A DNA stretch of 64,000 bases from a virus (IMGVR_UViG_3300021387_000661:64001-128000), one strand, 5' to 3'. Counted from the stretch's first letter, positions 1-22,310 are shown. Numbers and translations are program-made. Notes: generated by a model from the sequence alone, not told the origin.

Positions 1-687
1 CCAACCACTGTTTTTAACAAGTTCAAATACTTCATCAAATGTAAAGTAACAGTCTCCATCTTTTAATGAAAGGTCATCATCTGCCCACAAAACAGATCCT
101 CCCATATCAAGAGGTTTAAGAGATTTTATGTTTGTGAAATCATCTTCTTTCTTAACATCAGTTCCATTGCCTCTTCTCCTGATGTCATTCCAAACAGATT
201 CAGAAACATAATTCTTGTCTTTTACAAGGAAAACAAAAAGTCTGTTTATCGACTTGTTGAAGTTTGTAACATCAAAAACATTTGAATTATTAAATCCATA
301 TGCATATGCACTACTTGGGAATTTGGCATTGATTTCTTTTGTCCACATATGGAATCCATAACTTCCATTGGTCTTGAGTCTTAATTCATTTCCATCATAA
401 AATTTAAGGTGCTTACATCCTTCATACCAGGCAATCCTGATATTCCAATGCAACTGGTTCACTTCATCAACAGTAGGAAGTCTCCAACCATTATTGTTAT
501 AATCTTTTACATCATCAAAATGGAATTTCACCTCACCATCAATCTCAAGGTTGTCAATTGCCCAATAGATTGTTGTGTTTTCACCAAAGTCAACATAATC
601 TGGATTGAAAGCATCCTCTTGCTTGATATCAGTACCTATACCCCTTCTTCTGATGTCACTCCAGACTGATTCACTTAATTTCTTCAT
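1..687 (-). CDS. Tagged polyprotein-like protein, partial (runs off the left end); two ESxWxDIRRRG-tagged modules, each resembling the Bacteroidota 'VDLG...WA...WRLPT' (Lcl/DUF1566-like) domain
   Basis: Not in the ORF track (no stop inside the window). Translated by hand from ATG 687: MKKLSESVWSDIRRRGIGTDIKQEDAFNPDYVDFGENTTIYWAIDN...GWRLPTVDE...YVSESVWNDIRRRGNGTDVKKEDD...LDMGGSVLWADDDL... Confidence 0.75.
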   Translation of the reverse strand, partial: MKKLSESVWSDIRRRGIGTDIKQEDAFNPDYVDFGENTTIYWAIDNLEIDGEVKFHFDDVKDYNNNGWRLPTVDEVNQLHWNIRIAWYEGCKHLKFYDGNELRLKTNGSYGFHMWTKEINAKFPSSAYAYGFNNSNVFDVTNFNKSINRLFVFLVKDKNYVSESVWNDIRRRGNGTDVKKEDDFTNIKSLKPLDMGGSVLWADDDLSLKDGDCYFTFDEVFELVKNSGW

Positions 688-689
688 AG

Positions 690-1475
690 TTAATCTTTAA
701 ATTTTATGAATGCTACACCTTCTGTACCACTTGGATTGTTTTCATAATCCAATTCAAATTCTTTCAAATGTACCCATCCAAGTTTTGTATATGTGTCTAT
801 CAATTCTTTCCTTAAATCCTCATACCAGTTATCAAGCATAGGATATGTGATTATATGTATATCTTGAACCGTATCATAATCAACATCTTCTAATTCACAA
901 GGAGGTATTGTTGGATTTCCATCATCATCATACCAAGTTCCATCATCTTCATAGAGTATTGCACCACCAACATCATAATCAGTACCAATCAAATCATATA
1001 TGGTATATTTTGCAAATTCAGACATATGATTGTCTTCAAAAATCTTCTTTGTGTATTTGACAAGAATATCCTGGATTTCAAGTTCAGAACTATACATCTG
1101 CTCAAATCTTCCATTTTTAATCAACTCATCAATATAATCATCCCTGTCTTTATCTATATAATCTCTCAATACATAGACATCATATTCATCTTCACCAATA
1201 TCCCATTTATCACAACCAAATACACCTGCTATTTCTGTATCACCCCAGATTATGGTTGGATTGTTTTTGGGTCTATTAAATGCAAAACACCTCCAGGGGT
1301 CAGAGTTTTCTTCTTCATAAACATCTCCAAGTCCCCAGAAATCTTTCATAAGTTGATATTTAACACCATCAATGACAAGGGTAATACCTTTGTCTTCCTG
1401 TTTTACATCATCGCCAAGACCTCTTCTTCTGATGTCACCCCATATAGATTCAGTTATGTTACTTAATTTTTTCAT
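690..1475 (-). CDS. Hypothetical acidic protein with N-terminal ESxWxDIR tag (candidate internal head protein)
   Basis: Starts MKKLSNITESIWGDIRRRGLGDDVKQED; the rest is unlike its neighbours. Confidence 0.8.
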   Translation of the reverse strand: MKKLSNITESIWGDIRRRGLGDDVKQEDKGITLVIDGVKYQLMKDFWGLGDVYEEENSDPWRCFAFNRPKNNPTIIWGDTEIAGVFGCDKWDIGEDEYDVYVLRDYIDKDRDDYIDELIKNGRFEQMYSSELEIQDILVKYTKKIFEDNHMSEFAKYTIYDLIGTDYDVGGAILYEDDGTWYDDDGNPTIPPCELEDVDYDTVQDIHIITYPMLDNWYEDLRKELIDTYTKLGWVHLKEFELDYENNPSGTEGVAFIKFKD

Positions 1476-1490
1476 ATACTTCTCAATTTT

Positions 1491-2123
1491 TCATATACTT
1501 ATTAATATTCCAAATGAGTCCACAATGTCATCAATTGGTTTGATTACCTTATAATCAAGTTCATTCTCTTTACAGAACTTCCAGAATCCACACTTCTCAA
1601 TGTCTGGGTCTTTTATCCTGTTCTCAATAAATGCCTGGATCATATCTTCCTTCTTTGCATTTCCCTTACCGGAGAGATTCTTCTTTCCCTCTGTTGGAGA
1701 AATGATAACCAAACAGTCTTCACCAAAATCCTCCAGTAATTTAATCCTTAAAAATGAGTTGAACAGTGCCAGGTCCAGGGTCGATGATGATATACTTCCA
1801 TAAGAGAAACCTTCAAGTCCTATAATGACCTCTTCATCACCAACCAATTCTACCAATCTGTTTGAGATTTTGTTTGCGATCATTTTCGCAGCCCTCATCT
1901 TTGTTCTCTGTTCTTCCCTGTAGTCCTTCTTATCAATCTCCCTGGTGTATGGGTTGAGTTCTATAATACCTGAAAGTTGTCTGTGATAGTTGAAAGTCTT
2001 GTTCTTACCAGTCTTCCAGTCCTTTCCATAATCATCAAAGAAAGAGATGAAAGAATATTCACCATCTTTATATATACACACTGCCGGCGAAATCAAACTA
2101 TAATCTATTCCTATTTTAATCAT
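1491..2123 (-). CDS. RuvC-like Holliday junction resolvase (RNase H fold)
   Basis: IGIDYS strand, LEGFSYGS, SPTEGKK..SGKGNAKKEDM and DDIVDS acidic motifs typical of phage RuvC-like resolvases. Confidence 0.75.
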   Translation of the reverse strand: MIKIGIDYSLISPAVCIYKDGEYSFISFFDDYGKDWKTGKNKTFNYHRQLSGIIELNPYTREIDKKDYREEQRTKMRAAKMIANKISNRLVELVGDEEVIIGLEGFSYGSISSSTLDLALFNSFLRIKLLEDFGEDCLVIISPTEGKKNLSGKGNAKKEDMIQAFIENRIKDPDIEKCGFWKFCKENELDYKVIKPIDDIVDSFGILISI

Positions 2124-2620
2124 CTCAATGGTACTCCTTTTTCTCCATTAATTTCTGGTTCTTCCCTCAATACATACTCATTACTATATTTGTACACATA
2201 GAACTTCTTATTTTCAAGTCTGTATTTGATACTTCTTTTTTCCTGGATACTCATATCTGAATATTTTATAGGATTATAACTCTTGACACCATTGGCTTCC
2301 ATAGTATAGTTATCTGCACCATGTGATGTATTGTGGTAGATAGACAGATACCAGGCATCTTCATACTTGAAATGGATCCTTATTACATTTGGTTTCTCTA
2401 TATTCATCACTTTTTCAAGAGGCCATATGATGAGGTCATAAAGGAAATCATACAATCTCAATTCAGTTGATTTATACTTTGGTACAATATCAATAAGTAT
2501 GTTTCTCCACCAGTGTTCATAATCCTGTTCTGGTAAATCTTCCTGTTTGATGTCAGAACCTATACCTCTTTTTCTGATGTCATTCCAAACACTTTCAGTT
2601 ATACTACTCAGCTTCTTCAT
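2120..2620 (-). CDS. Hypothetical protein with N-terminal ESxWxDIR tag
   Basis: MKKLSSITESVWNDIRKRGIGSDIKQED; stop overlaps the start of the RuvC-like gene. Confidence 0.8.
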   Translation of the reverse strand: MKKLSSITESVWNDIRKRGIGSDIKQEDLPEQDYEHWWRNILIDIVPKYKSTELRLYDFLYDLIIWPLEKVMNIEKPNVIRIHFKYEDAWYLSIYHNTSHGADNYTMEANGVKSYNPIKYSDMSIQEKRSIKYRLENKKFYVYKYSNEYVLREEPEINGEKGVPLR

Positions 2621-3410
2621 CTACTGTAAACCAATTTTTAGTATATTCTTTATATTTCTTGAAGTTCTTCACTGTTGTTGCTGTGATAGGGATGCCAATG
2701 TTACAAGCATAATCATTGAATGACCAGACAATGAAAACAACATCATCTAATTCAGGGAATGTGTCAATCATACTTTCTTTATAATCAATTAAACTGGAGG
2801 CAGTACTTCCTTCGCCATATTTATCAGTATATTGTATTTCCCAATCATAAACATCTGATTCATCAATTAACTGTAAGATATAATCACTTTCATAATAAGA
2901 TATATTATCAAATTTTGTTTCAATAAAACCACCTTTATGTCTTGGTAGGTATGCAATGTCTCCACCAATCTCTTTTAGTTTGGTTGCAATACCTTTACAG
3001 ATTGATATATAGTCTTCTTCAGATACTCTGTCTTCAAAGTCATCCAGGTCAAAGTCTTTCATTTCATCATATGTCAAGAAATCTGCAATCAGGTCTGTAC
3101 CATGTCCTCCATCATATATAAGATATGTATAAGGTGCTTCAAATGCCCTGATGTTTTTCATTTCTTCTGGGGAATATGCCTTATCTCTGGTATTCAAGAT
3201 TGCAACCCTACATTCAACATAACTATCATTGTAATTAAGGATTTCTTTTATGAGTTCTTCATAATAAGAATCAGAAGCATTTTTCAGATAGATATCTACA
3301 TCAATACAAGTGTGAACTTTTTTACCATCCTCTTGTTTTACCTCAGTACCTATACCCCTTTTTCTGATGTCATTCCATACTGATTCTGTTATATTACTTA
3401 ATTTTTTCAT
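2604..3410 (-). CDS. Hypothetical acidic protein with N-terminal ESxWxDIR tag
   Basis: MKKLSNITESVWNDIRKRGIGTEVKQED; first gene after the minus-strand CATAAATA at 3432-3439. Confidence 0.8.
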   Translation of the reverse strand: MKKLSNITESVWNDIRKRGIGTEVKQEDGKKVHTCIDVDIYLKNASDSYYEELIKEILNYNDSYVECRVAILNTRDKAYSPEEMKNIRAFEAPYTYLIYDGGHGTDLIADFLTYDEMKDFDLDDFEDRVSEEDYISICKGIATKLKEIGGDIAYLPRHKGGFIETKFDNISYYESDYILQLIDESDVYDWEIQYTDKYGEGSTASSLIDYKESMIDTFPELDDVVFIVWSFNDYACNIGIPITATTVKNFKKYKEYTKNWFTVDEEAE

Positions 3411-3431
3411 TTATTAATAAAATATATAAGA

Positions 3432-3457
3432 TATTTATGGATTTTTGTTATATTTAG
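3432..3457. promoter_or_regulatory. Divergent promoter pair: late-type CATAAATA (-) back-to-back with TTTGTTATATTTAG (+)
   Basis: Same arrangement recurs at 5590-5626, 21031-21057, 23790-23833 and 59478-59504. Confidence 0.65.
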
Positions 3458-3494
3458 AATACTGAAAGAAGTTTAATTTTAAGTAGATAATAAT

Positions 3495-4304
3495 ATGTTT
3501 GAAAAAGTAAATCCTTCACATCCAGACAAGGTTGCTGATAGAATTGCAGGAGCATTGTTAGACCTTGCATATGCCAACCAGGAGAATCCAAAGGTTGCTG
3601 TTGAAGTACTCATTGGTCATGGTCTTTGTACAATCATTACAGAATCAAGTTTTGATTTCAATGAGGAAAATGTACTCCCCATTGTAAAGAGAATTGCCGG
3701 AGATGGTGTAGATCTTAAACTCATTGCTGTTCCACAGGATGAACATCTTGCACATAACCAGGATGATGAAATTCGCTGTGGCGATAATGGGATCTTCAAG
3801 GGTGAACCACTTGATGGAGAAGAAATGGAACTGAGTAAATTAGCACAGGAAATTTATCAGATTTATCCTACTGATGGTAAGTATATCCTGGATGAGAAAT
3901 CAAATACATTGATTGTTTGTCAAAGTAATGCTGATTCTGAAGAACTTAAAAATTGGTTGGAAGAAAAGTATCCTCATTATACAGTCATTGTGAATCCTCT
4001 TGGTGATTGGACTGGGGGACCAGATGTTGATTCTGGGGCAACCAACCGCAAGCTTGGTTCAGATATGGGTAGGTCTGTCACCGGTGGAGGACTTTGGGGG
4101 AAAGATGCATCAAAATGTGACTGGTCTGTAAATGTATATGCATTTCTTGAAGCACAACGAACTGGAAAACCTCAAAAGTTTTTTTGTGCAATTGGAGATA
4201 CAGAAATAAATGGTATACCATATTCTGAAATTGTAAAGATTGCCCTTGAATATGTTAAACAAATTGGTGGATTTGAATCTGCTGCATCTTGGGGACTCAT
4301 TTAA
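3495..4304 (+). CDS. metK: S-adenosylmethionine synthetase (short phage form)
   Basis: EKVNPSHPDKVADRIA, CGDNG, DSGATNRKL and GGGLWGKDASKCD match the MetK signature motifs. Confidence 0.9.
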   Translation: MFEKVNPSHPDKVADRIAGALLDLAYANQENPKVAVEVLIGHGLCTIITESSFDFNEENVLPIVKRIAGDGVDLKLIAVPQDEHLAHNQDDEIRCGDNGIFKGEPLDGEEMELSKLAQEIYQIYPTDGKYILDEKSNTLIVCQSNADSEELKNWLEEKYPHYTVIVNPLGDWTGGPDVDSGATNRKLGSDMGRSVTGGGLWGKDASKCDWSVNVYAFLEAQRTGKPQKFFCAIGDTEINGIPYSEIVKIALEYVKQIGGFESAASWGLI

Positions 4305-4308
4305 GAAG

Positions 4309-4339
4309 AAAGGAGAGAACTTAAAAAATTCTCTCTTTT
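4309..4339. terminator. Bidirectional intrinsic terminator between convergent genes
   Basis: aaaggagagaa ... ttctctctttt inverted repeat. Confidence 0.5.
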
Positions 4340-5520
4340 AATTTTTTAATATCATCACCTTTTAGAATTATGATATTATTTTTAATCATACATTGGTGTT
4401 TGGATTCAGCCAAACCATCTTTATACTCATTTCTATCATATGGGCAAATCATTTTATCTCCATCAAAGAATTGATCACCTTTTACTTCATATAATTTACC
4501 ATTAATACAAAAGTCAGGGTGATAATAATGTTTCATTTCTTCATATTCATATTCAAATGTAATATCTGGTTGATATTCACAAGGAATGTTATTTTCTTTA
4601 CAATATTGATAAATTTCTACTTCCCAAGATGAATCAAATGTTAAACCATCATAAAGAATCATCTTTTGTTTTTTGTGTGACCATTCTTTAGTTTGTGAAT
4701 AATTTATTACACCATATTTCTTCTTACAGGTTTCTTGCATTTTATCAAGACATTCTTGTGTTTGTGTATAACTTTCAACACCATATTTTTTTCTACAAGT
4801 TTCTTTTGCTTTTTGTCTGAATTCTTTGACTTGTAATGCATGTTCAACACCATATCTTTCTAACATCACAGATTTTTGTTTTTCTTTATATTCTGGTGTT
4901 TGTGTAAAATGTTCTACTCCATATTTTTCTAAACTTGTTTTTCTAACAGATTTTTTATATTCTTCTGATTGTTGATAATATTCTACTCCATATTTTTCAA
5001 CATTTGTTTGTTTTACTTTATTTCTACATTCAGATAAGGAAGAATAATTTTCTACGCCATATCTATCTTTTGATGTATTTTTATATTTTTGTCTGATTTG
5101 TATTGATTGTAAAGGGTGTTCAACACCATATTTTTCTAGACAAGTTGCTTTTATTTTTTCAAGACATTCTTTTGTTTGTGAATAATTTTCAACACCATAT
5201 CTATTAATACATGTTTCTTGCCTTTTTATTAAAGTGTTCTTATCTTTTATAGAACAATTTTTACAACAATGTAAGTTATATTCCTTACTAAATGATAAGA
5301 AAGTACATCTCTTTCCACAAACTGGACATAACCCAAGTTTTAATTCTGGGTCATCATTAAAGTAGTGAAATAGTTTTTGTGTGAATTTAAAATCAGATGG
5401 AAAATTCCAGGTAGATAAAATCTGATAGTGCTCAGGAAATTTCTTTTTGAATTGTGGTTCTTCTATATTACCATTTGGGTGTGTCTTAAGAATAGACAAC
5501 ACTTCTTCCTTTGTCATCAT
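4321..5520 (-). CDS. Free-standing homing-endonuclease-like protein (Zn ribbon + KYGVE repeats + PD-(D/E)xK nuclease)
   Basis: CPVCG...HCCKNC, tandem (E/K)(K/R)YGVE repeats, C-terminal FDSSWE...YHPDF...LYEVKG. Confidence 0.7.
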   Translation of the reverse strand: MMTKEEVLSILKTHPNGNIEEPQFKKKFPEHYQILSTWNFPSDFKFTQKLFHYFNDDPELKLGLCPVCGKRCTFLSFSKEYNLHCCKNCSIKDKNTLIKRQETCINRYGVENYSQTKECLEKIKATCLEKYGVEHPLQSIQIRQKYKNTSKDRYGVENYSSLSECRNKVKQTNVEKYGVEYYQQSEEYKKSVRKTSLEKYGVEHFTQTPEYKEKQKSVMLERYGVEHALQVKEFRQKAKETCRKKYGVESYTQTQECLDKMQETCKKKYGVINYSQTKEWSHKKQKMILYDGLTFDSSWEVEIYQYCKENNIPCEYQPDITFEYEYEEMKHYYHPDFCINGKLYEVKGDQFFDGDKMICPYDRNEYKDGLAESKHQCMIKNNIIILKGDDIKKLKERIF

Positions 5521-5544
5521 AAATATAGTGATATTTTATATATT

Positions 5545-5597
5545 AGAGCAGGTGGGACAATTTACCAGATTTACCATCTGCTCTTTCTATATTTATG
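5545..5597 (-). promoter_or_regulatory. Late promoter followed by a conserved leader hairpin
   Basis: agagcaggtgg/ccatctgctct stem enclosing tttaccaga, then ttctatatttatg; analogous element at 20982-21038. Confidence 0.55.
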
Positions 5598-5629
5598 AAA
5601 ATTTATATTTGGTTTGTTATATTTAGTGT

Positions 5630-6691
5630 ATGGAAAATAGGAAAATTTGGTTAATTGCAGACACTCACTTTGGATATAAAGGAGATGATGAAGAATTTTT
5701 AAATGACTACATTGGTTACTTTGAAGATGTTGTCATACCATTGATGAAGAAAGAGGTCAAGGATGGGGATATATTGATCCATTGTGGAGATGTCTTTGAC
5801 AACCGTTCCAATATTGGATTGAACACCATATACAGAGTAATTAAGTTATTTGAGTCATTTTCAAATATCTTCAATGACATCAGGATAACGGTTGGTAACC
5901 ATGACATTCTCAAGAAATCAACCAATGACATCACATCCATCAATATGTTGAAACATATACCACATATTAAGATTTATTATACACCTGAAGTGGAAGTTAT
6001 TGATGGAAAGACCTGTCTTTTTAATCCCTGGGTGGAAGATCCAGCAAAAGAGAAGGAGATACTTGCAGGAGTAAATGTAAATTATGTGTTTGGTCATCTT
6101 GAAATTGGAGGGTCACAGATGACAAGTAGGACAGGTATGAAGATTGAATTCCAGGGTGGTGTAAAACCATCAGACTTTAAGGATGCCCAGGTTTATGCTG
6201 GTCATATCCATATCAAACAGGATAATAAGAATATTCATTATCTTGGGAATCCTTATCATAAAGATAGAGGTGATAGGGGTAATCCAAAGGGTATAACTAT
6301 TCTTGACTTGAAAACTGGAAAGACCAGGTTTGTTGAAAACATTATTTCTCCAAGATATTTAAAGGAAAACATTTATGACATTCTTAATCTGACTGTTGCA
6401 GACCTCAAGACAAGGTGGAACAATAACAGGATAGACCTTCATATGAAGAATACAGATTATACAAAGTGTAGTTTTGATGAATTGAAGACTGCCCTGGGAA
6501 ACTGTTATAGGAGTTTTGAGCCACATGGGGATGAGGTTGTTGCAGAATTGAATATTGTGAATGACATCAATTTTAATGATGCAAAAAGTAGTGATGATTA
6601 TATGGATGATTTTCTTCACAATCAGGATGTAGATGAGAATATGATGAATGCCATAAAAGAGAAACTAATTGAGTATAGAGACAGATTATGA
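5630..6691 (+). CDS. gp47: Recombination endonuclease subunit (T4 gp47 / SbcD / Mre11 metallophosphoesterase)
   Basis: ADTHFG, GDVFDNR, VGNHD, FGHLE and AGHIH motifs. Confidence 0.9.
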   Translation: MENRKIWLIADTHFGYKGDDEEFLNDYIGYFEDVVIPLMKKEVKDGDILIHCGDVFDNRSNIGLNTIYRVIKLFESFSNIFNDIRITVGNHDILKKSTNDITSINMLKHIPHIKIYYTPEVEVIDGKTCLFNPWVEDPAKEKEILAGVNVNYVFGHLEIGGSQMTSRTGMKIEFQGGVKPSDFKDAQVYAGHIHIKQDNKNIHYLGNPYHKDRGDRGNPKGITILDLKTGKTRFVENIISPRYLKENIYDILNLTVADLKTRWNNNRIDLHMKNTDYTKCSFDELKTALGNCYRSFEPHGDEVVAELNIVNDINFNDAKSSDDYMDDFLHNQDVDENMMNAIKEKLIEYRDRL

Positions 6692-6954
6692 TAAAATTTC
6701 AAGCAGTAAATAATGTGGTTATATTGGTGAAGGATAAAGGAGAACCATCACCAATTATATTACCAAATCAGCAACCAAAGAATATGTATGAAATCCCAGA
6801 ACCATATACAGGTGTGATAGATAGTGTGGGGATAGACAATGAATGGAAGAAAGGAGACCATATTGCTTTCTGTGATATGGGTGGTGTTTATATGAAAGTA
6901 GATGATATTGAATATGTGGTCATTACTCCAGAAATGATAATTGGTAAATTGTAG
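6688..6954 (+). CDS. groES: GroES-like co-chaperonin
   Basis: 88 aa; IILP mobile loop, GVIDSVG, KKGDHIAF, VDDIEYVVI..EMIIGKL pattern. Confidence 0.7.
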   Translation: MIKFQAVNNVVILVKDKGEPSPIILPNQQPKNMYEIPEPYTGVIDSVGIDNEWKKGDHIAFCDMGGVYMKVDDIEYVVITPEMIIGKL

Positions 6955-6956
6955 TT

Positions 6957-7100
6957 ATGGAAGAAATTGTTTGGAACATAAGATTGGGAAAATTCAACAT
7001 CCGTTGGAAAAAGTATTATTATCCACCTTTCATTCAGAAAGATTTTTGTAAAGAATACAAGTATTTCAGTATTGGTAAACTTACATTTGTTATTATGTAA
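6957..7100 (+). CDS. Small hypothetical protein (47 aa)
   Basis: Hand-translated MEEIVWNIRLGKFNIRWKKYYYPPF...; fills the gap between groES and the exonuclease. Confidence 0.4.
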   Translation: MEEIVWNIRLGKFNIRWKKYYYPPFIQKDFCKEYKYFSIGKLTFVIM

Positions 7101-7117
7101 TTGTAAATTATGTAGAT

Positions 7118-7984
7118 ATGGATTTTGATGATATTTTTAATAATTCATTTGAGAAAAAGATAGAAGATAAGAACTTGGTGAACTTCAAGGTAAATGAATG
7201 TAGGAGACTTATTCTTGAGAAGTTTGGAGACATTAAGTTTATTGAGGAAGGTCATCAGTATTTTATTGGGGAGGAAGAATACATTCCTGTTAGTAACATC
7301 ATTAAAGAATATGAACCCGAAGTTGACTGGGATCAGAAAGCAGAAGATTATGCCAGAAAGTGGGGAAAAAAAAAGGAGGATGTACAGAAGGAGTGGAAAC
7401 TCAATAATCTGAAATCAACTATTTCCGGGACTAGGACACACTCTTTTGGTGAGAGTTATACCAATCTGTTGTGTGGTCATCCTGAACTCATCTGTGAGCA
7501 GAATAAACCACAGTATATTGAGGAATACAACACAATGGTTTCCACCTATCCAAAGGAGGATGCAGTGAAGAAGTTTTATGATGAATTGGAGACCAATTTA
7601 CATCCTATTGGTGCAGAGTTTAAACTTTCTTCAGAATACATAAAAGAATCCAGATCCATCTGTGGTACTTGTGACCTTTTGTTTTATGACAGTGAGAAAG
7701 ATGCTTATGTGATTGGTGACTGGAAGACAAACAAGTCATTGATAAAGGAATTTTCCAGGACTAATGGAATTCATATGACAGGGTGTATGAGTAAGTTTGT
7801 TGATGAACCTCTTTCACATTATACACTTCAATTCAATATTTATCAGAGAATGCTTGAATCTGTTGGATTGAAGATAATTGACAGGATACTGATATGGTTG
7901 AAGGATGATGGAACATATGAAAGGATAAATATTGAGAAGATTCCAGATAATGTTGTAGATAAGATTTTGAAAGGTGAGGATTAA
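7118..7984 (+). CDS. PD-(D/E)xK exonuclease (RecB/Cas4-like family)
   Basis: GTRTH, ICGTCDLLF, IGDWKTN and YTLQFNIY motifs. Confidence 0.8.
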   Translation: MDFDDIFNNSFEKKIEDKNLVNFKVNECRRLILEKFGDIKFIEEGHQYFIGEEEYIPVSNIIKEYEPEVDWDQKAEDYARKWGKKKEDVQKEWKLNNLKSTISGTRTHSFGESYTNLLCGHPELICEQNKPQYIEEYNTMVSTYPKEDAVKKFYDELETNLHPIGAEFKLSSEYIKESRSICGTCDLLFYDSEKDAYVIGDWKTNKSLIKEFSRTNGIHMTGCMSKFVDEPLSHYTLQFNIYQRMLESVGLKIIDRILIWLKDDGTYERINIEKIPDNVVDKILKGED

Positions 7985-7999
7985 TTCCCCACCTTTTCT

Positions 8000-8007
8000 C
8001 ATAAATA
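8000..8007 (+). promoter_or_regulatory. Late promoter CATAAATA
   Basis: Variant of the T4 late promoter TATAAATA, 5 nt before ATG 8013; recurs before most structural genes. Confidence 0.65.
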
Positions 8008-8012
8008 ATTGT

Positions 8013-10769
8013 ATGAGTACAACCAATGAATCAATATGGAATGACATCAGGAGAAGAGGTAATGGTTCTGATGTGAAGAAAGAAGATGATGTGAATCTTC
8101 TAGATATAGATGGACTCTATGATTATATCAAATCCAAATATGAGAAATATGTATTTGATTTAGATAAGGACACATTTGGTATATTAAATAAAAGGAATAT
8201 TGTTGTAGATATAATATCCAATGTGAGTCTGTTTACATCATATGATAAAAGTGGTAAATTGGATCACATTCTTTTATCTTGGACAAAAGTAAAGATAGGA
8301 ATGCCATTCTTTGATAAACTTTCAGAAAGGTTTAATGTACAATCACCAAATGTGTGTAGAAGAAGGATTACTGAAAAGGATGGTACCTGTACAAACCAGA
8401 CATATATAGATGTTATTGATTTCTTTTTGAAAAATATGGACAATATGTTAGTTAATGAATCAATATGGAATGACATTAGAAGAAGAGGTAATGGTGATGG
8501 CGTCAAGCAGGAAGAATTTACAGAAGAATTTATAGATAAAGTAAAATCGGATTTAATTTGTTTTACTATGTCAGTTGTAAATTATATAGAGAATTATGAA
8601 CTGACATTTGATGGTTTTTACAAGTATTTGGAAGAAATTGAGAATCCAGATGAAGTCAAAAAAATCATTTATTATGTAAAAACTCATAAAGATGAATGTG
8701 ATAAACTTTTAGAAAAAGACATCAAATTTGAAAATAAATTACTAGATGAAAAGATTAATGTCTATTTATTGAGATTTGTTGACAATATTGTATATGATGA
8801 AAAGTATCATAATACATTGTCAGATATAAAAAAGTTTGCATCTGAAATTTTTAAAGGACATAAAAGTTCATATGATTTCCATATAAACAAAAAACTGGTT
8901 TTTAAGGATAAGTCTGAATTGTTTAATGACTATATTGAAGATAAATGGGAAGACGGTTCTCTTAAACAAAAGATTGATGATTTGATTAAAAATGAAAATG
9001 ATGAAATATCCAAATATGGATTTGTAAAAGAACCAGGAAAAACCATATCTGAAACAGTTAATGATTGGTGGTATTCATTGGATGAAGACAAAAGAAATGA
9101 TTTGGGATGGGATGAATTTGGAGAAGATGCAGAAGGAGAATACTATTCAGATCACAATCCTGATTATAATGAATATACTGGTGAAGATTTTGAAGCAGAT
9201 GAGTGGTGGGATGATGCATATGGTATAAGAAGGGTTAAAATCTATTGTAGTGAACATTCAAAAACAAATGAGTCAGTTTGGGGTGACATCAGGAAACAAG
9301 GTCTTGGAGATACCTTAAAGAAAGAAGATGATCCATTTGTAGATAGAGATATAGATTCTTTATCCAAGTATGAGTTCTGTGATTATTTGAATTTTCATTA
9401 TGAACCACTTATGGGAAGGAGTATTCACACAAATGAACATACAAGAGAAGTGACAATACCTATATACATCCATCAAGGATATGCACATATGTATGCAACA
9501 TTTAATGATGATTCAAAACTTGTAGATATAAGTCTTCCTCTTACACAAAAAAATCCTCCAAGATTATATAATAGGATGTGCAAGAAATTTAATGTTATCC
9601 ACACAAGGCCACACTGGTCATATATTAAACCAATTGATGGTGATGAATTGACCAATACATTTTGTCTTGAAGTGATTGATTTTATTCTTGAGAATGTTAA
9701 TCATCCTTTACTGAAAAAGATTGTCTTACACAAGGTGAAAAAATTAAATGAATCAGTTTGGGGTGACATCAGAAAAAGAGGTAATGGTACTGATGTAAAG
9801 AAAGAAGATGAGATGACACAAGATGATTTGGAAGCACTTAATGATTTTATATTTGGATTTGCAACAAGAGTAGTATGGGATGGAGTGAGGGATTCTTTGA
9901 CAAATTTCTTAAAATATATTGATGAAAATCCTGAAGCACTTGACTGTGACATTGATAGGGTAAAGAAGTATGTTGAAGATAATTGGCATAAAAGTATATG
10001 TGATGATGTTGAAGCAGCAATAGAACAGGAAGATAAGGAAAAAGAAGAAGGTATGAATGAATCCATTTGGAATGACATCAGAAGAAGAGGTAATGGTACT
10101 GATGTAAGGAAAGAAGATGATATGACTTCTGATGATTATAGGAATTTGAAGGTAATATTGAAGATGTTTGGTCGTGAGGTCAGATTCTTTGGTAATCATA
10201 AAAACCAGAAATTCTTTCCAGTAAATGCCAAGAAATATGAAATTACTCTTGAAGACTGTTTGTATTTCATTGATGTACTTGTTGACGGTAAATTTACGGG
10301 TGCTGATTTTTCTAAACTGAAAAGATATATTGAAGTAAATTGGGAACGAGACCCTATGATTAAGAACATTATACAATGGACTGTTGATGGTAAAAATTCA
10401 AAAGAAATTGACCAAGAAATCAGGAATGCCTCAAAAAGTGATGAGTTTTGGGATTTGAATGAATGTGATGGTGTCCCTGGTGGATTAACACCTGCTGATG
10501 TAGGTGGAATGGGATCTGCATATTTTCCTGGACCAAATGGAGAACCTGGTTCCGGAGACCTTCCATTGCCAACTGGAATAGTTTATAAACAAGTTGCACC
10601 TTTTGATACATTTATCAAAATGAGAAGACCAAAAAAGAATAAAAAGAAAAAGTTCAGAAAGGAAGATGAACTATGTGTTCATAGTGAAAATCCACCAATA
10701 TATAGTCATGTTGATGATTTTAGAGATTATGTGGATAGGACATATAATAATATTGATAAAAGGAAATAA
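8013..10769 (+). CDS. Modular polyprotein: five ESxWxDIR-tagged modules plus a C-terminal capsid-N-arm-like segment
   Basis: Tags at ~8025, 8454, 9267, 9747 and 10056; ATG 8013 preferred over GTG 7974 because the promoter lies between them. Confidence 0.8.
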   Translation: MSTTNESIWNDIRRRGNGSDVKKEDDVNLLDIDGLYDYIKSKYEKYVFDLDKDTFGILNKRNIVVDIISNVSLFTSYDKSGKLDHILLSWTKVKIGMPFFDKLSERFNVQSPNVCRRRITEKDGTCTNQTYIDVIDFFLKNMDNMLVNESIWNDIRRRGNGDGVKQEEFTEEFIDKVKSDLICFTMSVVNYIENYELTFDGFYKYLEEIENPDEVKKIIYYVKTHKDECDKLLEKDIKFENKLLDEKINVYLLRFVDNIVYDEKYHNTLSDIKKFASEIFKGHKSSYDFHINKKLVFKDKSELFNDYIEDKWEDGSLKQKIDDLIKNENDEISKYGFVKEPGKTISETVNDWWYSLDEDKRNDLGWDEFGEDAEGEYYSDHNPDYNEYTGEDFEADEWWDDAYGIRRVKIYCSEHSKTNESVWGDIRKQGLGDTLKKEDDPFVDRDIDSLSKYEFCDYLNFHYEPLMGRSIHTNEHTREVTIPIYIHQGYAHMYATFNDDSKLVDISLPLTQKNPPRLYNRMCKKFNVIHTRPHWSYIKPIDGDELTNTFCLEVIDFILENVNHPLLKKIVLHKVKKLNESVWGDIRKRGNGTDVKKEDEMTQDDLEALNDFIFGFATRVVWDGVRDSLTNFLKYIDENPEALDCDIDRVKKYVEDNWHKSICDDVEAAIEQEDKEKEEGMNESIWNDIRRRGNGTDVRKEDDMTSDDYRNLKVILKMFGREVRFFGNHKNQKFFPVNAKKYEITLEDCLYFIDVLVDGKFTGADFSKLKRYIEVNWERDPMIKNIIQWTVDGKNSKEIDQEIRNASKSDEFWDLNECDGVPGGLTPADVGGMGSAYFPGPNGEPGSGDLPLPTGIVYKQVAPFDTFIKMRRPKKNKKKKFRKEDELCVHSENPPIYSHVDDFRDYVDRTYNNIDKRK
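8025..10120 (+). repeat. Five dispersed ~65-bp in-frame repeats encoding NES(I/V)W(N/G)DIR(R/K)xGxGxxxKxE(D/E)
   Basis: Visible in both DNA (core TGACATCAG) and protein; five more copies on the minus strand in 142-3410. Confidence 0.9.
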
Positions 10770-21083: not shown

Positions 21084-22310
21084 ATGGCAAAAAGTTCAGG
21101 TGAGTTTACTTTTAATGATTTGAATAAAGAGATATCAAAAAACTCAAAATGGGGAGGACTTATGTCTGAACCTGGTAAGGGTGTATCAGAAATTACTGAA
21201 TATATTTCTGTTGGGAATTATGCTTGTAATGCATGTCTCAGTGGAAGTATTTTTGGAGGTATTCCTAATAATAGAATAACTGGATTTTCAGGCATTTCAG
21301 GAGTTGGAAAAACTTATTTATTACTCAATCTTGCAAGGGAAGCAATACTTAAAGATTATTTTGTTATATGGTATGATTCTGAAAATGCAATAGAATCAAA
21401 ACAACTCAAACAGTTTAATATTGATCCTACAAAATTTCGTTATGAACCAGCAACCAGTGTTGAAGAATTTAGAACATCAATAACTCAAATTATTGATTTG
21501 CTGACAGAAAAAAAGGAAGCTGGAATGTCTATACCTAAAGTACTTTTTGTTCTTGATTCACTTGGTGGACTTCCAAGTGCAAAAGAAATAGAAGATGCAA
21601 AAAGTGGTAGTGATAAAGCAGATATGACCAAGGCTAAAAAAATCAGGTCTATTTTTAGAATTATTTCTATGAAAATGGGTGTGATAGGTGCAACTATGGC
21701 ATTATCGAATCATGTGTATGAAAATACAAATGCATATGTTCCTACATCTGTTCAGTCTGGTGGTCAGGGTTTGGTTTATGGCGCAAGTGTTATTCTTAAT
21801 CTTTCAAAAGCAAAATTAAAAGAAGGTTCTGATAATACACAGACAGGTATTATTGTGACTGCAAAACCAGATAAAAATAGATTTTGTATTCCTCATACTG
21901 TTAAGTTTTATATAAGTTATATTTCCGGGTGTAATCCCTATGTAGGTCTGGAAGAATACATTTCATTTGAGAGATGTGGTATCCAGAGAGGTAAGTTCAT
22001 CACTGAGAAGGAATATCTGAAGAGTCCTAATGAAGACTATATCAGATGTGAGAACAATGGTGTTGTACAGTATTTCGTACCAAGTGAGACTGCCAGGGGA
22101 TATTGTCTTGATGATGGTACCACTATTCCTTTGAATCAGATATTCACATCCAAGGCATTCACCAAGGAAAGACTTGAAAGACTGGATGAGTATATCAAGT
22201 CAGAATTCAAGTATGCTGAAAGCAATGGTGTTGAGGAAGTCTTTGAAGATGATAATGAACCAGATGAGACTGTTGATGTGAATGATTTGATAGGAAGTCA
22301 GTTGAATTAG
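21084..22310 (+). CDS. uvsX: RecA/UvsX-like recombinase
   Basis: SGISGVGKT Walker A, WYDSENA, FVLDSLG, SNHVY and SGGQGLVYGAS motifs. Confidence 0.9.
   Translation: MAKSSGEFTFNDLNKEISKNSKWGGLMSEPGKGVSEITEYISVGNYACNACLSGSIFGGIPNNRITGFSGISGVGKTYLLLNLAREAILKDYFVIWYDSENAIESKQLKQFNIDPTKFRYEPATSVEEFRTSITQIIDLLTEKKEAGMSIPKVLFVLDSLGGLPSAKEIEDAKSGSDKADMTKAKKIRSIFRIISMKMGVIGATMALSNHVYENTNAYVPTSVQSGGQGLVYGASVILNLSKAKLKEGSDNTQTGIIVTAKPDKNRFCIPHTVKFYISYISGCNPYVGLEEYISFERCGIQRGKFITEKEYLKSPNEDYIRCENNGVVQYFVPSETARGYCLDDGTTIPLNQIFTSKAFTKERLERLDEYIKSEFKYAESNGVEEVFEDDNEPDETVDVNDLIGSQLN

Follow-up and report, generated by a model that had tools for sequence, protein, structure and literature searches.

In a 345-kb gut phage (genome G000, 344,746 bp), the whole ~60-nt repeat that encodes a protein tag, and not the nine-letter core inside it, probably acts at the DNA level, with recombination and gene conversion at this repeat shuffling the cassettes of the tagged genes. 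The data are best read as general homologous recombination together with gene conversion across the entire tag, and its 60 letters do seem to provide the homology stretch for swapping, fusing and splitting cassettes. The analysis covered a window of 64,000 nucleotides of this genome, to which the coordinates refer unless otherwise stated, together with its relatives. A preliminary description of the window had proposed that the core TGACATCAG (Asp-Ile-Arg together with the last base of the preceding codon) is invariant at the DNA level and marks a possible crossover site for cassette shuffling. Its observation on the core was partly confirmed and its interpretation partly supported: the relatives, the hybrid tags and the homogenised tags agree with recombination among tag copies that moves, duplicates and fuses modules, but the 9-nt core did not hold as the site.

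Organization of the tag copies

Ten tag copies are present in 142-10120, with Trp codons at 192, 663, 1442, 2587 and 3377 on the minus strand and at 8037, 8466, 9279, 9759 and 10068 on the plus strand, and 27 copies were counted genome-wide. The tag spans ~20 residues, and its consensus is an [I/V/T/M/L]-x-Glu|Ser junction followed by Ser-[I/V]-Trp-x-Asp-Ile-Arg-[R/K]-Arg-Gly-x-Gly-..-Lys-x-Glu-Asp. The repeat is coding and lies inside open reading frames; it is not an intergenic promoter with a stem-loop. As the preliminary description had noticed, the same tag both heads single genes (MKKLS..ITES... starts) and joins fused modules as internal copies.

On the minus strand, the copy at 142..201 (60 nt, Glu-Ser..Glu-Asp) is inside the fused two-cassette ORF 1-687, both cassettes of which are separate genes in L001, and the copy at 613..672 is at the head of this ORF (MKKLSES...), with a DUF1566/Lcl_C-like cargo. 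The copies at 1392..1451, 2537..2596 and 3327..3386 head the stand-alone gene 690-1475 (cargo KGITLVIDG...), the gene 2120-2620 (cargo LPEQDYEHWW...) and the gene 2604-3410 (cargo ..HTCIDVDIY..), respectively, and the last one has orthologues in L006, L001 and L013. The recombination genes said to lie in or near the array were all located: a RuvC-like Holliday-junction resolvase gene inside it (1491-2123, minus strand; PHROG 159, E 1.9e-14), which is also found in the L006 and L001 arrays and is missing from the L013 array, a gp47/SbcD-like recombination nuclease subunit (5630-6691, plus strand), which was the anchor for finding syntenic relatives, and a RecA/UvsX-like gene (21129-21929). A homing-endonuclease-like gene (4321..5520, minus strand) sits between both arrays, outside the tag system, and is not in one sheep-gut strain.

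On the plus strand, the polyprotein P0001 (8013..10769, 918 aa) contains five tagged cassettes and a C-terminal piece, with tag copies at 8028..8087, 8457..8516 (the copy carrying GAC ATT AG), 9270..9329, 9750..9809 and 10059..10118. At the third copy, sheep-gut contigs lose collinearity at 9272/9273, which is the Glu|Ser junction, this evidence coming from short Logan assembly contigs that break at repeats and not from single molecules. The left array of L006 carries an inserted paralogue of the cargo of the fourth copy, and the 5' part of the fifth copy matches the 5' part of an L006 hybrid tag.

Predicted processing of the tagged proteins

The genome encodes a prohead protease (Peptidase_S77, PF03420, E 3.5e-10, G000:112331-112672). 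As a sequence motif, 435/435 tags have Glu at P1 and 429/435 have I/V/T/M/L at P3, and the cut sites of T4 Alt are given as ITE and LTE in PMC5694885. Judging from this motif, a T4-type prohead protease would cut after Glu, and the tag would be the retained N-terminus of the cargo. The conserved 20 residues lie C-terminal to the Glu|Ser junction and are not a removed N-terminal propeptide; four tag copies begin directly with Met-Ser-[V/I]-Trp. The uniformity of the tag may be selected since all copies would have to fit one partner in the head.

Concerted evolution of the tags

Tag spelling is specific to each genome, while the cargo remains orthologous. The identity of the 39-nt tag core is 0.83-0.91 among paralogues within one genome and 0.54-0.68 among orthologues across differently spelled genomes, the latter being not above that of non-orthologues. 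In all six orthologous alignments, which include 11 tags, conservation is lower in the tag (0.63-0.90) than elsewhere (0.78-0.91); in the L001 and L013 alignments the tags reach 0.63-0.78 versus 0.78-0.89 for the remaining sequence. Furthermore, a comparison of 436 tags from 111 polyproteins gave a core identity of 0.92 for tags of one protein versus 0.77 between proteins sharing a cargo family, and every major cargo family was found behind 11-21 tag spellings.

Genome-specific spellings are also compatible with co-evolution with a protein partner, and the tag could have no role as DNA at all: illegitimate recombination would shuffle the modules, selection would keep the in-frame tagged products, and the uniformity would reflect parallel protein-level co-evolution with one receptor or protease. 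The protein-level constraint on the tag is indeed very strong, and most of the "odd" codons are explained by codon context. However, parallel change in up to 27 copies at ~6 residues each is far less parsimonious than conversion, and the orthologous cargo is meanwhile 78-89% identical in DNA.

Synonymous sites may also argue against a purely protein-level origin. Tag codon pairs for the same residue are identical at a frequency of 0.605, versus 0.49-0.50 expected from context models, and synonymous identity is higher for same-array than for different-array pairs (2/5000 permutations). Two adjacent tags, at 134938 and 135418 in window coordinates, have 16 of 17 same-residue codons in common and an exact tract of 44 nt, although their cargo is only 29% identical as protein; exact tracts of 44, 42 and 35 nt are shared by neighbouring tags despite cargo that is 26-34% identical. 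The best single tag pair has P = 1.1e-4 among 351 pairs of copies that are not independent and, with codon context taken into account, synonymous sites give no more than moderate evidence of gene conversion. Short homology patches (<50 bp) suffice for T4-type recombination, according to the citation of Singer et al. 1982 in PMC2839356, which also speaks for a role of the tag as DNA.

Cassette rearrangements among relatives

Module order is far from identical across relatives. Cassettes are gained, lost, replaced, fused, split or reordered between them, in every case at tags. Relative to window 1453-1486, L006 carries an insertion of 922 bp, and its collinear homology stops at 1452, the 5' edge of the tag 1392..1451. 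Both L006 junction tags (5496 and 5814) are hybrids, each combining parts that match two different window tags, and they are 38/39 identical to one another. One junction maps to a 19-nt interval containing the core and the other falls between codons +8 and +10, on the 3' side of the core; these are the only two junctions mapped at the DNA level, both in this one relative, and later homogenisation may have wiped the original crossover points.

In addition, a cassette is replaced between window 2124-2615 and L001 7478-7986, which is DUF1566-like in L001, and the fused cassettes of the window (1-687) and L006 (3722-4741) correspond to the separate L001 genes 6354-6848 and 5775-6350. The module orders of the polyproteins differ between the window, L001 and L013, and the 111 tagged homologous polyproteins present 82 module orders. 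The P5-P3 residues track the upstream module (AMI 0.6-0.7) and P20' onward tracks the downstream cargo (AMI 0.44-0.70), while the tag, from P1 to P19', tracks neither flank (AMI at most 0.15). The modules are tag-defined, so breakpoints at tags are partly circular at the protein level, and this evidence is also qualified by selection, which would discard out-of-frame or untagged products of illegitimate recombination. Both points suit a tag without a DNA role; the L006 junction tags, being seamless in-register hybrids of two parental tags, do not, and such an origin is regarded as unlikely.

Under recombination across the whole tag, the general recombination machinery of the phage would use the tag copies as short homology patches. 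By analogy with T4-type phages, this machinery would consist of UvsX, gp46/47 and the RuvC-like resolvase. Gene conversion would keep the tag copies alike, and crossovers between tags would produce the rearrangements, always in frame.

Spelling of the core

The core TGACATCAG was found in nine of the ten local copies, as previously stated, and the exception described near ~8454 as GAC ATT AG is the copy with its Trp codon at 8466, which has TGACATTAG at 8471-8479. Genome-wide, the exact core is present in 16/27 copies, the Asp codon is GAC in 25/27, and the Ile codon is ATC in 16, ATT in 7 and ATA in 4. The remark that other tag positions vary synonymously is true for the Ser, Val/Ile and Arg columns only; other columns are as uniform as the core, namely Glu (GAA 22/23), Asn (AAT 18/18 and 20/21), Lys (AAA 14/15 and 15/16) and Thr (ACT 13/14). 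The TGA-CA-TCA interrupted palindrome seen in the core has arms of 3 bases only and carries no weight.

Plain codon usage makes the GAC of the tag look anomalous, as its share is 25% in the genome and 15% in the cargo of tagged genes. The genomic share of GAC varies with the next codon (71% before ATC, 37% before ATT, 29% before ATA, 3% before ATG and 2% before G-starting codons), that of ATC is 45% before AGA and 65% before AGG, and the genome has a CpG ratio of 0.19 and a CATG ratio of 0.39. The core is uniform because its residues are invariant and the context rules favour GAC before ATC and ATC before AGR. The claimed DNA-level invariance was thus not upheld, since the spelling matches this genomic bias and that of the 11 non-tag Asp-Ile-Arg sites: GAC occurs in 9/11 of them versus 25/27 tags (Fisher p 0.56), and GAC-ATC-AGR in 6/11 versus 16/27 (Fisher p 1.0). 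Hence, the nine-letter core is the usual spelling of Asp-Ile-Arg in this genome and no signal by itself. The two observations on which the crossover proposal hinged went separate ways: GAC and ATC are explained by codon bias, in the form of context bias and not of late-gene bias, and module order is not identical among relatives. GAC in 25/27 tags is still above the rough context expectation of ~0.54, with a non-tag comparison set of 11 members only, which leaves some residual effect of a founder haplotype, conversion or selection.

Among the compared genomes, TGACATCAG is confined to G000 and L006, and 7/7 tags of L006 carry GACATCAG. The core is TGATATGATG in G001, and GAT ATG ATG is found in 9/9 L001 tags and 10/10 G001 tags. 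L013 has GAT ATG CAG (GAT in 6/8 tags), and G002 has GAC/GAT ATA/ATT/ATG CAY (GAY ATH/ATG CAY), never using ATC; in its 27 tags, Asp is GAC at 12/16 sites followed by Ile and at 3/11 followed by Met. Concerning a dedicated enzyme, no tyrosine or serine recombinase turned up in the genome (344,746 bp) in a search with PF00589 and PF00239 (0 matches), while the controls found their targets in 14 and 12 of the 14 genomes searched.

A functional hairpin in the tag DNA or mRNA is another possible explanation of the spelling: its inverted repeat, and not the peptide, would fix the third bases of GAC, ATC and [A/T]CT, and it could act as an RNA signal or let a hairpin nuclease (gp46/47) enter. ACATCAG in the core has its complement, CTGATGT, 17 nt downstream in the codons Thr/Ser-Asp-Val, and Watson-Crick pairs occupy 137/189 cells versus at most 77/189 for slid partners, a control inflated by the derivation of the structure from the tested sequences themselves. 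A 7-bp stem without mismatches is seen in 8/27 copies and one with at least 6 pairs in 14/27, codon +10 (ACT 13/14, TCT 8/8) exceeds context expectations of 0.37-0.39, and z is below -2 for 2/6 tags folded as DNA. On the other hand, the stem has little stability (-1.7 to -4.9 kcal/mol; loop of 17 nt), conservation is <60% at 3/7 pairs, no compensatory changes or covariation were seen in the 27 copies, 7 of which keep GAC opposite the partner base A, and an equivalent stem was not found in the L001 or L013 tag sets; a functional hairpin is regarded as quite improbable.

A dedicated, DNA-invariant crossover site in the 9-nt core, where modules would be excised, duplicated and fused by site-specific or hotspot recombination with the aid of the RuvC-like resolvase, is highly improbable and already largely refuted: the exact local and genomic copies, the inclusion of T-GAC-AT, in ~60% of 351 tag pairs, in the longest tract that both tags share exactly (median 12 nt), and the L006 junction in the 19-nt interval favour it, whereas the core is spelled as at non-tag sites and differs in G001, L013 and G002, no tyrosine or serine recombinase was found, one mapped junction out of two falls outside the core, the L013 array has no RuvC-like gene, the entire tag from P1 to P19' and not the core alone is unlinked from both flanks, and the palindrome arms are 3 nt long.

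Comparison with known systems

Integrons resemble the tag arrays as exchangeable cassette arrays in which each cassette is bounded by a repeated site (attC), and they require a tyrosine recombinase (IntI) and structured attC sites. In the phage, however, such a recombinase was not found in the genome, the site is unconserved among relatives, and the exchange takes place in frame within coding sequence. With regard to an integron-type fold, the 7-bp inverted repeat is perfect in those 8/27 tags, lacks covariation and is not in L001/L013.

In Rhs/CDI polymorphic toxins, a conserved coding motif likewise borders a constant part and a variable cargo, and its DNA provides the homology for in-frame cargo swaps. 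These systems differ in being bacterial, with one constant N-terminal body, a C-terminal swap, immunity genes and no multi-cassette string; a genome-specific tag spelling is not known for them. Orphan toxin cassettes were reportedly described by Koskiniemi et al. in 2014.

PeSL shuffling in T4-type phages is also similar, as described by Arbiol et al. 2010 (PMC2839356), where the comparison with integrons is drawn too, and Comeau et al. 2014 (PMC4122927). In both systems a short conserved sequence in many copies flanks variable cassettes, close relatives differ by repeat-bounded insertion, deletion or replacement of cassettes, junction repeats are chimeric (here the L006 tags 5496 and 5814), and efficient homologous recombination by the phage itself, acting on patches <50 bp, is put forward as the agent. 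Excised mini-circles are demonstrated for PeSLs in that literature. PeSLs are ~100 bp intergenic promoter and stem-loop elements with their own transcription signals, whereas the tag is coding and in frame, so exchange also fuses and splits genes within polyproteins.

Moreover, the T-even internal protein loci with the capsid targeting sequence (CTS), as described by Rao and Black 2010 (PMC3012670) and Ali et al. 2017 (PMC5694885), contain highly diverse small proteins sharing only a short conserved N-terminal element by an [I/L]-x-Glu gp21-type protease site. These loci are hyperplastic, and flanking repeats have been proposed to drive their shuffling (Repoila et al. 1994, cited in PMC2839356). 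The T4 CTS is a propeptide of 10-20 residues that is removed, whereas here the 20 residues after the predicted cut would stay on the cargo. According to the same sources, T4 internal proteins are single genes in two loci and their proposed recombination sites are promoter-like flanks; in this phage the tag occurs in 27 copies spread over several arrays, polyproteins among them, and the corresponding site would be the coding tag.

Tag copies and neighbouring genes

The tag, a peptide repeat of about 20 residues coded by about 60 nt, is present in 27 copies in the whole virus record (G000; 344,746 bp, 34.7% G+C), with the consensus Glu-Ser-[I/V]-Trp-[N/G/S]-Asp-Ile-Arg-[R/K]-[R/K/Q]-Gly-x-Gly-..-Lys-x-Glu-Asp. 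Ten copies lie in window 142-10120: five on the minus strand (Trp codons at 192, 663, 1442, 2587 and 3377) head or join genes, and five on the plus strand (8037, 8466, 9279, 9759 and 10068) belong to one 918-aa polyprotein. The preliminary description had proposed the 9-nt core encoding Asp-Ile-Arg as a DNA-level invariant crossover site for the shuffling of cassettes, that is, tags with the module (cargo) behind them. The underlying count was confirmed, as nine of the ten copies hold TGACATCAG and the exception is the copy at 8466 (TGACATTAG at 8471-8479). The neighbours that it named were also borne out: a RuvC-like gene (1491-2123), a gp47/SbcD-like gene (5630-6691) and a RecA/UvsX-like gene (21129-21929).

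The 9-mer has 13 exact matches in the window, nine in tags and four elsewhere. With at most one mismatch there are 42 matches versus 28 expected, a number reached in 0 of 100 shuffles. One of the matches outside any tag is inside gp47 (5875-5883), where Asn-Asp-Ile-Arg is written AAT GAC ATC AGG, and it gave the first hint that the core spelling is generic.

Core spelling and codon context

Against plain codon usage, the core looks conserved beyond its coding function. GAC is used in 25/27 tags and ATC in 16/27, versus 25% and 26% in 340 long ORFs and 15% (66/434) and 15% in the cargo of the same genes. Since this cargo is so low in both codons, late-gene or gene-level codon bias was ruled out as the cause. 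The third base in G000 depends very strongly on the next codon. GAC accounts for 71% of the Asp codons before ATC, 37% before ATT, 29% before ATA, 3% before ATG (5/156) and 2% before codons starting with G, and ATC for 45% of the Ile codons before AGA and 65% before AGG. Relative to base composition, CpG (ratio 0.19), ACGT (0.05), CTAG (0.07), TCGA (0.14), AGCT (0.21), GCGC (0.23), CATG (0.39) and GATC (0.49) are all depleted, and this avoidance of short palindromes and codon contexts suggests restriction avoidance. GATATC avoidance (EcoRV-type; 186 observed versus a Markov expectation of 292) was rejected as the sole cause; it can account for GAC only where ATC follows, not where ATT or ATA does.

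The direct control was a small set of 11 non-tag Asp-Ile-Arg(AGR) sites in ORFs of at least 120 aa, taken from a crude long-ORF list. GAC is found in 9/11 of these sites versus 25/27 tags (Fisher p 0.56), and the full GAC-ATC-AGR in 6/11 versus 16/27 (Fisher p 1.0), so that the spelling of non-tag sites is indistinguishable from that of the tags. Moreover, other tag columns equal the core in uniformity (GAA 22/23; AAT 18/18 and 20/21; AAA 14/15 and 15/16; ACT 13/14). The GAC and ATC of the core are therefore caused by codon context and not by gene-level bias, with a modest unexplained residue of GAC, which at 25/27 still exceeds a rough context expectation of ~0.54. The proposal of the core as a special DNA-level site is not supported, as non-tag sites are spelled alike and the core differs in relatives. 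In G000, which avoids CpG, CATG and further short palindromes and whose third-base choice is so dependent on the codon that follows, "DNA-level conservation" of short coding motifs should be judged against codon-context expectation and not against plain codon usage.

The tag also contains an inverted repeat, whose arms appeared as paired matches of the 9-mer search on the two strands. ACATCAG can pair with CTGATGT (codons Thr/Ser-Asp-Val), which lies 17 nt further downstream, and the complementarity reaches 9 bp in some copies. The repeat, of 7-9 bp, is seen for example at window 8043-8050 with 8068-8074. Pairing occurs in 137/189 cells versus at most 77 for slid partners, and the third bases of GAC, ATC and [A/T]CT are involved. 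The stem folds weakly. It is perfect in 8/27 copies, and three of its seven pairs each occur in less than 60% of the copies. No compensatory changes were found among the 27 copies, nor a counterpart in the relatives' loci L001 and L013, which have other tag spellings. The inverted repeat is probably incidental.

Tag spelling in relatives

Syntenic loci of relatives were found with gp47 as the anchor: L006 (90% gp47 identity, same tag spelling as the window), L001 on contig G001 (75%) and L013 (76%). A 411-kb phage (G002) was added through a search with the conserved C-terminal piece; loci L035-L037, also matched by this piece, lack tags and were set aside. The core is GACATCAG in 7/7 tags of L006, GAT ATG ATG in 9/9 tags of L001 (10/10 across its contig) and GAT ATG CAG GAC in L013, with GAT in 6/8. 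In the 27 tags of G002, GAC is used in 12/16 cases before Ile and 3/11 before Met, and ATC is never used. The core is thus not conserved among relatives. The switch between GAC and GAT tracks the next codon, in line with the context rule, and is therefore no evidence for or against gene conversion. Reading GAC in G000 and GAT in L001 and L013 as a fixed synonymous difference proving conversion was rejected, because GAC before ATG is almost absent genome-wide (5/156) and GAT ATG is forced by context.

The whole tag is likewise spelled differently in each genome: ESVWNDIRRRGNG in G000 and L006, ESAWGDMMRRGSG in L001, ESIWSDMQDRSxG in L013 and ESVWADIHKRSNG in G002. Megablast and tblastn searches against GenBank phages gave no match, degenerate tag patterns matched either the single relative contig or nothing in IMG/VR, and in GTDB genomes they gave 6 single matches, about the chance level (~9, estimated by hand). 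A limited search of open-access literature text gave no description of this tag or of tagged polyproteins in huge phages.

Concerted evolution of the tag

Tag spelling is genome-specific, and the cargo that follows remains orthologous and syntenic. Over the 39-nt tag core, paralogues within a genome are 0.83-0.91 identical; orthologous tags of genomes with different spellings reach 0.54-0.68, not above non-orthologous tags. The tag is the less conserved part in 6/6 orthologous alignments (11 tags), with identities inside versus outside the tag of 0.63-0.78 versus 0.78-0.89 for L001 and L013 and 0.87 versus 0.91 for L006. When G000 and L006 are compared, the tag core is as similar between orthologues (0.851) as between non-orthologues (0.847) and so gives no orthology signal; such a signal is present in the 3' 21 nt of the tag (0.848 versus 0.713).

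The same pattern is seen in homologous polyproteins. A protein search matched 130, and among the 120 listed and analysed, 111 are tagged by our pattern and use dozens of spellings. The core identity of tags falls from 0.92 inside one protein to 0.77 for tags of different proteins that share a cargo family, and to 0.71 in the remaining comparisons, and each major cargo family is found behind 11-21 tag spellings.

At synonymous sites the evidence for conversion is moderate. Codon pairs for the same residue are identical in 0.605 of cases versus 0.49-0.50 under context models, and tag pairs from the same array exceed those from different arrays in codon identity (2 of 5000 permutations). Eight of the 351 tag pairs have P below 1/351. 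The best pair, neighbours at 134938 and 135418 (window numbering carried into the rest of the record), shares 16/17 codons and a 44-nt exact tract, and the cargo of these two tags is 29% identical as protein.

Cassette exchange and probable crossover positions

A block collinear with L006 at 89.5% identity stops at window 1452, the first codon of a tag, where the left array has 922 bp in L006 (5507-6428) versus 34 bp in the window (1453-1486). Within this insert lie a 197-aa gene that has no tag and a paralogue of the polyprotein's fourth cargo. In place of the window cassette 2124-2615, L001 has an unrelated cassette that is DUF1566-like (7478-7986). Furthermore, two cassettes are fused in one ORF in the window (1-687) and in L006 (3722-4741) and form two genes in L001; in L013 other cassettes are fused and the array has no RuvC-like gene. 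The untagged gene of L006 (5843-6436, minus strand), between the RuvC-like gene and the tagged cassettes, has the MKKLSKI leader of the tagged stand-alone genes.

The internal order of the polyprotein also differs among the window, L001 and L013. P0002, a homologous polyprotein with the window's tag spelling, begins with two additional cassettes, one of them orthologous to a G000 cassette in another array (window coordinate 135891). Module families were clustered at strict cut-offs, since looser single linkage merged all into one cluster. The 111 tagged homologues, a sample biased to proteins with modules in common with the query, show 82 different module orders, such as C-A-E-C-D-B, C-E-A-D-B and A-E-F-D-B; the internal families are arranged in many ways, with a fairly constant last cargo and C-terminal piece. 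In the largest spelling group (266 tags), with P1 as the Glu before the predicted cut, residues P5-P3 track the upstream module (AMI 0.58-0.72) and those from P20' on the downstream cargo (AMI 0.49-0.69), and P1-P19' track neither flank (AMI at most 0.15). The whole tag is therefore an evolutionary unit unlinked from both flanks. In another homologue, P0060 (714 aa), three tags are spelled ESIWSDIQDRSMG and the fourth ESVWTDMQKRSSG, typical of polyprotein P0018, which fits the uptake of a foreign cassette along with its tag.

Crossovers could be mapped only for the L006 event. The downstream hybrid tag resembles the polyprotein tags up to and including TGG AAT and the window 1442 tag from GGT CTT on, so that the switch falls within GACATCAGRARAAGAGGT, core included. 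In the upstream one, the part up to and including CTT resembles the 1442 tag and the part from codon +10 the fourth polyprotein tag, with the switch 3' of the core. CTT is present in both hybrid tags, which are 38/39 identical to each other. This is impossible by one simple reciprocal crossover, and conversion or a second event is needed. Over the 351 tag pairs, the longest exact tract in common has a median of 12 nt (at least 20 in 36 pairs and at least 30 in 8), and about 60% of these tracts include T-GAC-AT. In many pairs the core is therefore the best microhomology, and its preferential use has no support. An integrase or resolvase-type recombinase was searched for and not found. Homologous recombination along the whole tag, together with gene conversion, is the best explanation and a fairly likely one.

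Tag function and known systems

The junction before the tag reads [I/V/T/M/L]-x-Glu, followed by Ser, in 429-435 of 435 tags, and INE, LNE and similar triplets of residues stand before the C-terminal piece. A family S77 prohead protease is encoded in the genome. The T4 protease cuts Alt at ITE and LTE (PMC5694885) and removes targeting propeptides of 10-20 residues (PMC5694885; PMC3012670). In the T4 CTS the propeptide is removed, whereas here the conserved part would stay on the cargo after the predicted cut. Four tag copies start directly at Met-Ser-[V/I]-Trp and would yield the same N-terminus without cleavage. Judging from these sequence features, the tagged proteins are probably packaged in the head.

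The closest known mechanism is the PeSL-mediated modular shuffling described for T4-type phages (PMC2839356), which has in common with the tag system a repeated flanking element, indels between close relatives, chimeric junctions and reliance on the phage's own recombination (PMC2839356). Unlike PeSLs, which are intergenic regulatory repeats (PMC2839356), the repeat here is a coding, in-frame tag. A broader proposal, which we put forward only tentatively, is that the tag DNA has a dual use, as peptide address and as in-frame recombination linker. Its copies would form a homology-driven network of cassette exchange across a large family of gut and rumen huge phages, integron-like without a recombinase, and the genome-specific spelling, kept by gene conversion, would be a compatibility code. 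A foreign cassette would arrive with its foreign tag, as in P0060, and become resident once conversion rewrites that tag.

If the reading of the tag as a site of homologous exchange holds, these huge phages have a simple way to diversify a probably head-packaged protein set: by means of a 60-nt coding repeat, their ordinary machinery of recombination would move cassettes in frame from array to array and from one genome to another, turning single genes into polyproteins and back. The PeSL idea, which concerns intergenic regulatory repeats, would then also cover a coding peptide tag. Moreover, the genome-specific spellings offer a route to the head partner of the tag, through proteins that co-vary with the spelling.

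Strain variation and mobile elements

Contigs of four runs from other samples were placed on the window at ≥85%. In the polyprotein region they break at tags, and several connect one tag to the flank of another. The joints link 9272 with 10065 (AGT intervening), 3394 with 9811 (opposite strands) and 9829 with 10458; in addition, 10123 is joined back to 10058 and 9644. These joints show assembly graphs branching at tags; their sides are only 30-42 nt, in contigs ending inside the repeat, and cannot prove junction molecules. They are for this reason only a hint that cassettes have other neighbours in strains of the sheep and goat gut. The low cover of 9279-9750 in X6 and X7 carries no weight as evidence.

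Window 163-4031 and 5614-7564 are collinear with one 6605-nt sheep-gut contig, in which position 4234 is followed by 118 other letters and then by 5614. This contig lacks the homing-endonuclease-like gene (4321-5520, within window 4235-5613; DUF7487, PHROG homing endonuclease), an absence consistent with a mobile gene.

Other insertions were seen in the relatives. The DNA polymerase ORF of L013 (5-3568, 1187 aa) has ~667 nt (1766-2432), between YIDTDS and IYTSYEDI, that are absent from G000 and L006; with Cys at its start and His-Asn at its end, this insert looks like an intein. In L035 an insert beginning with Cys apparently interrupts the RecA/UvsX-like ORF (2928-3893 and 1257-1922) after ...VQSGG, and a large gene separates the two halves, possibly an intein or homing element; the homologue in L036 (2672-3892) is continuous.
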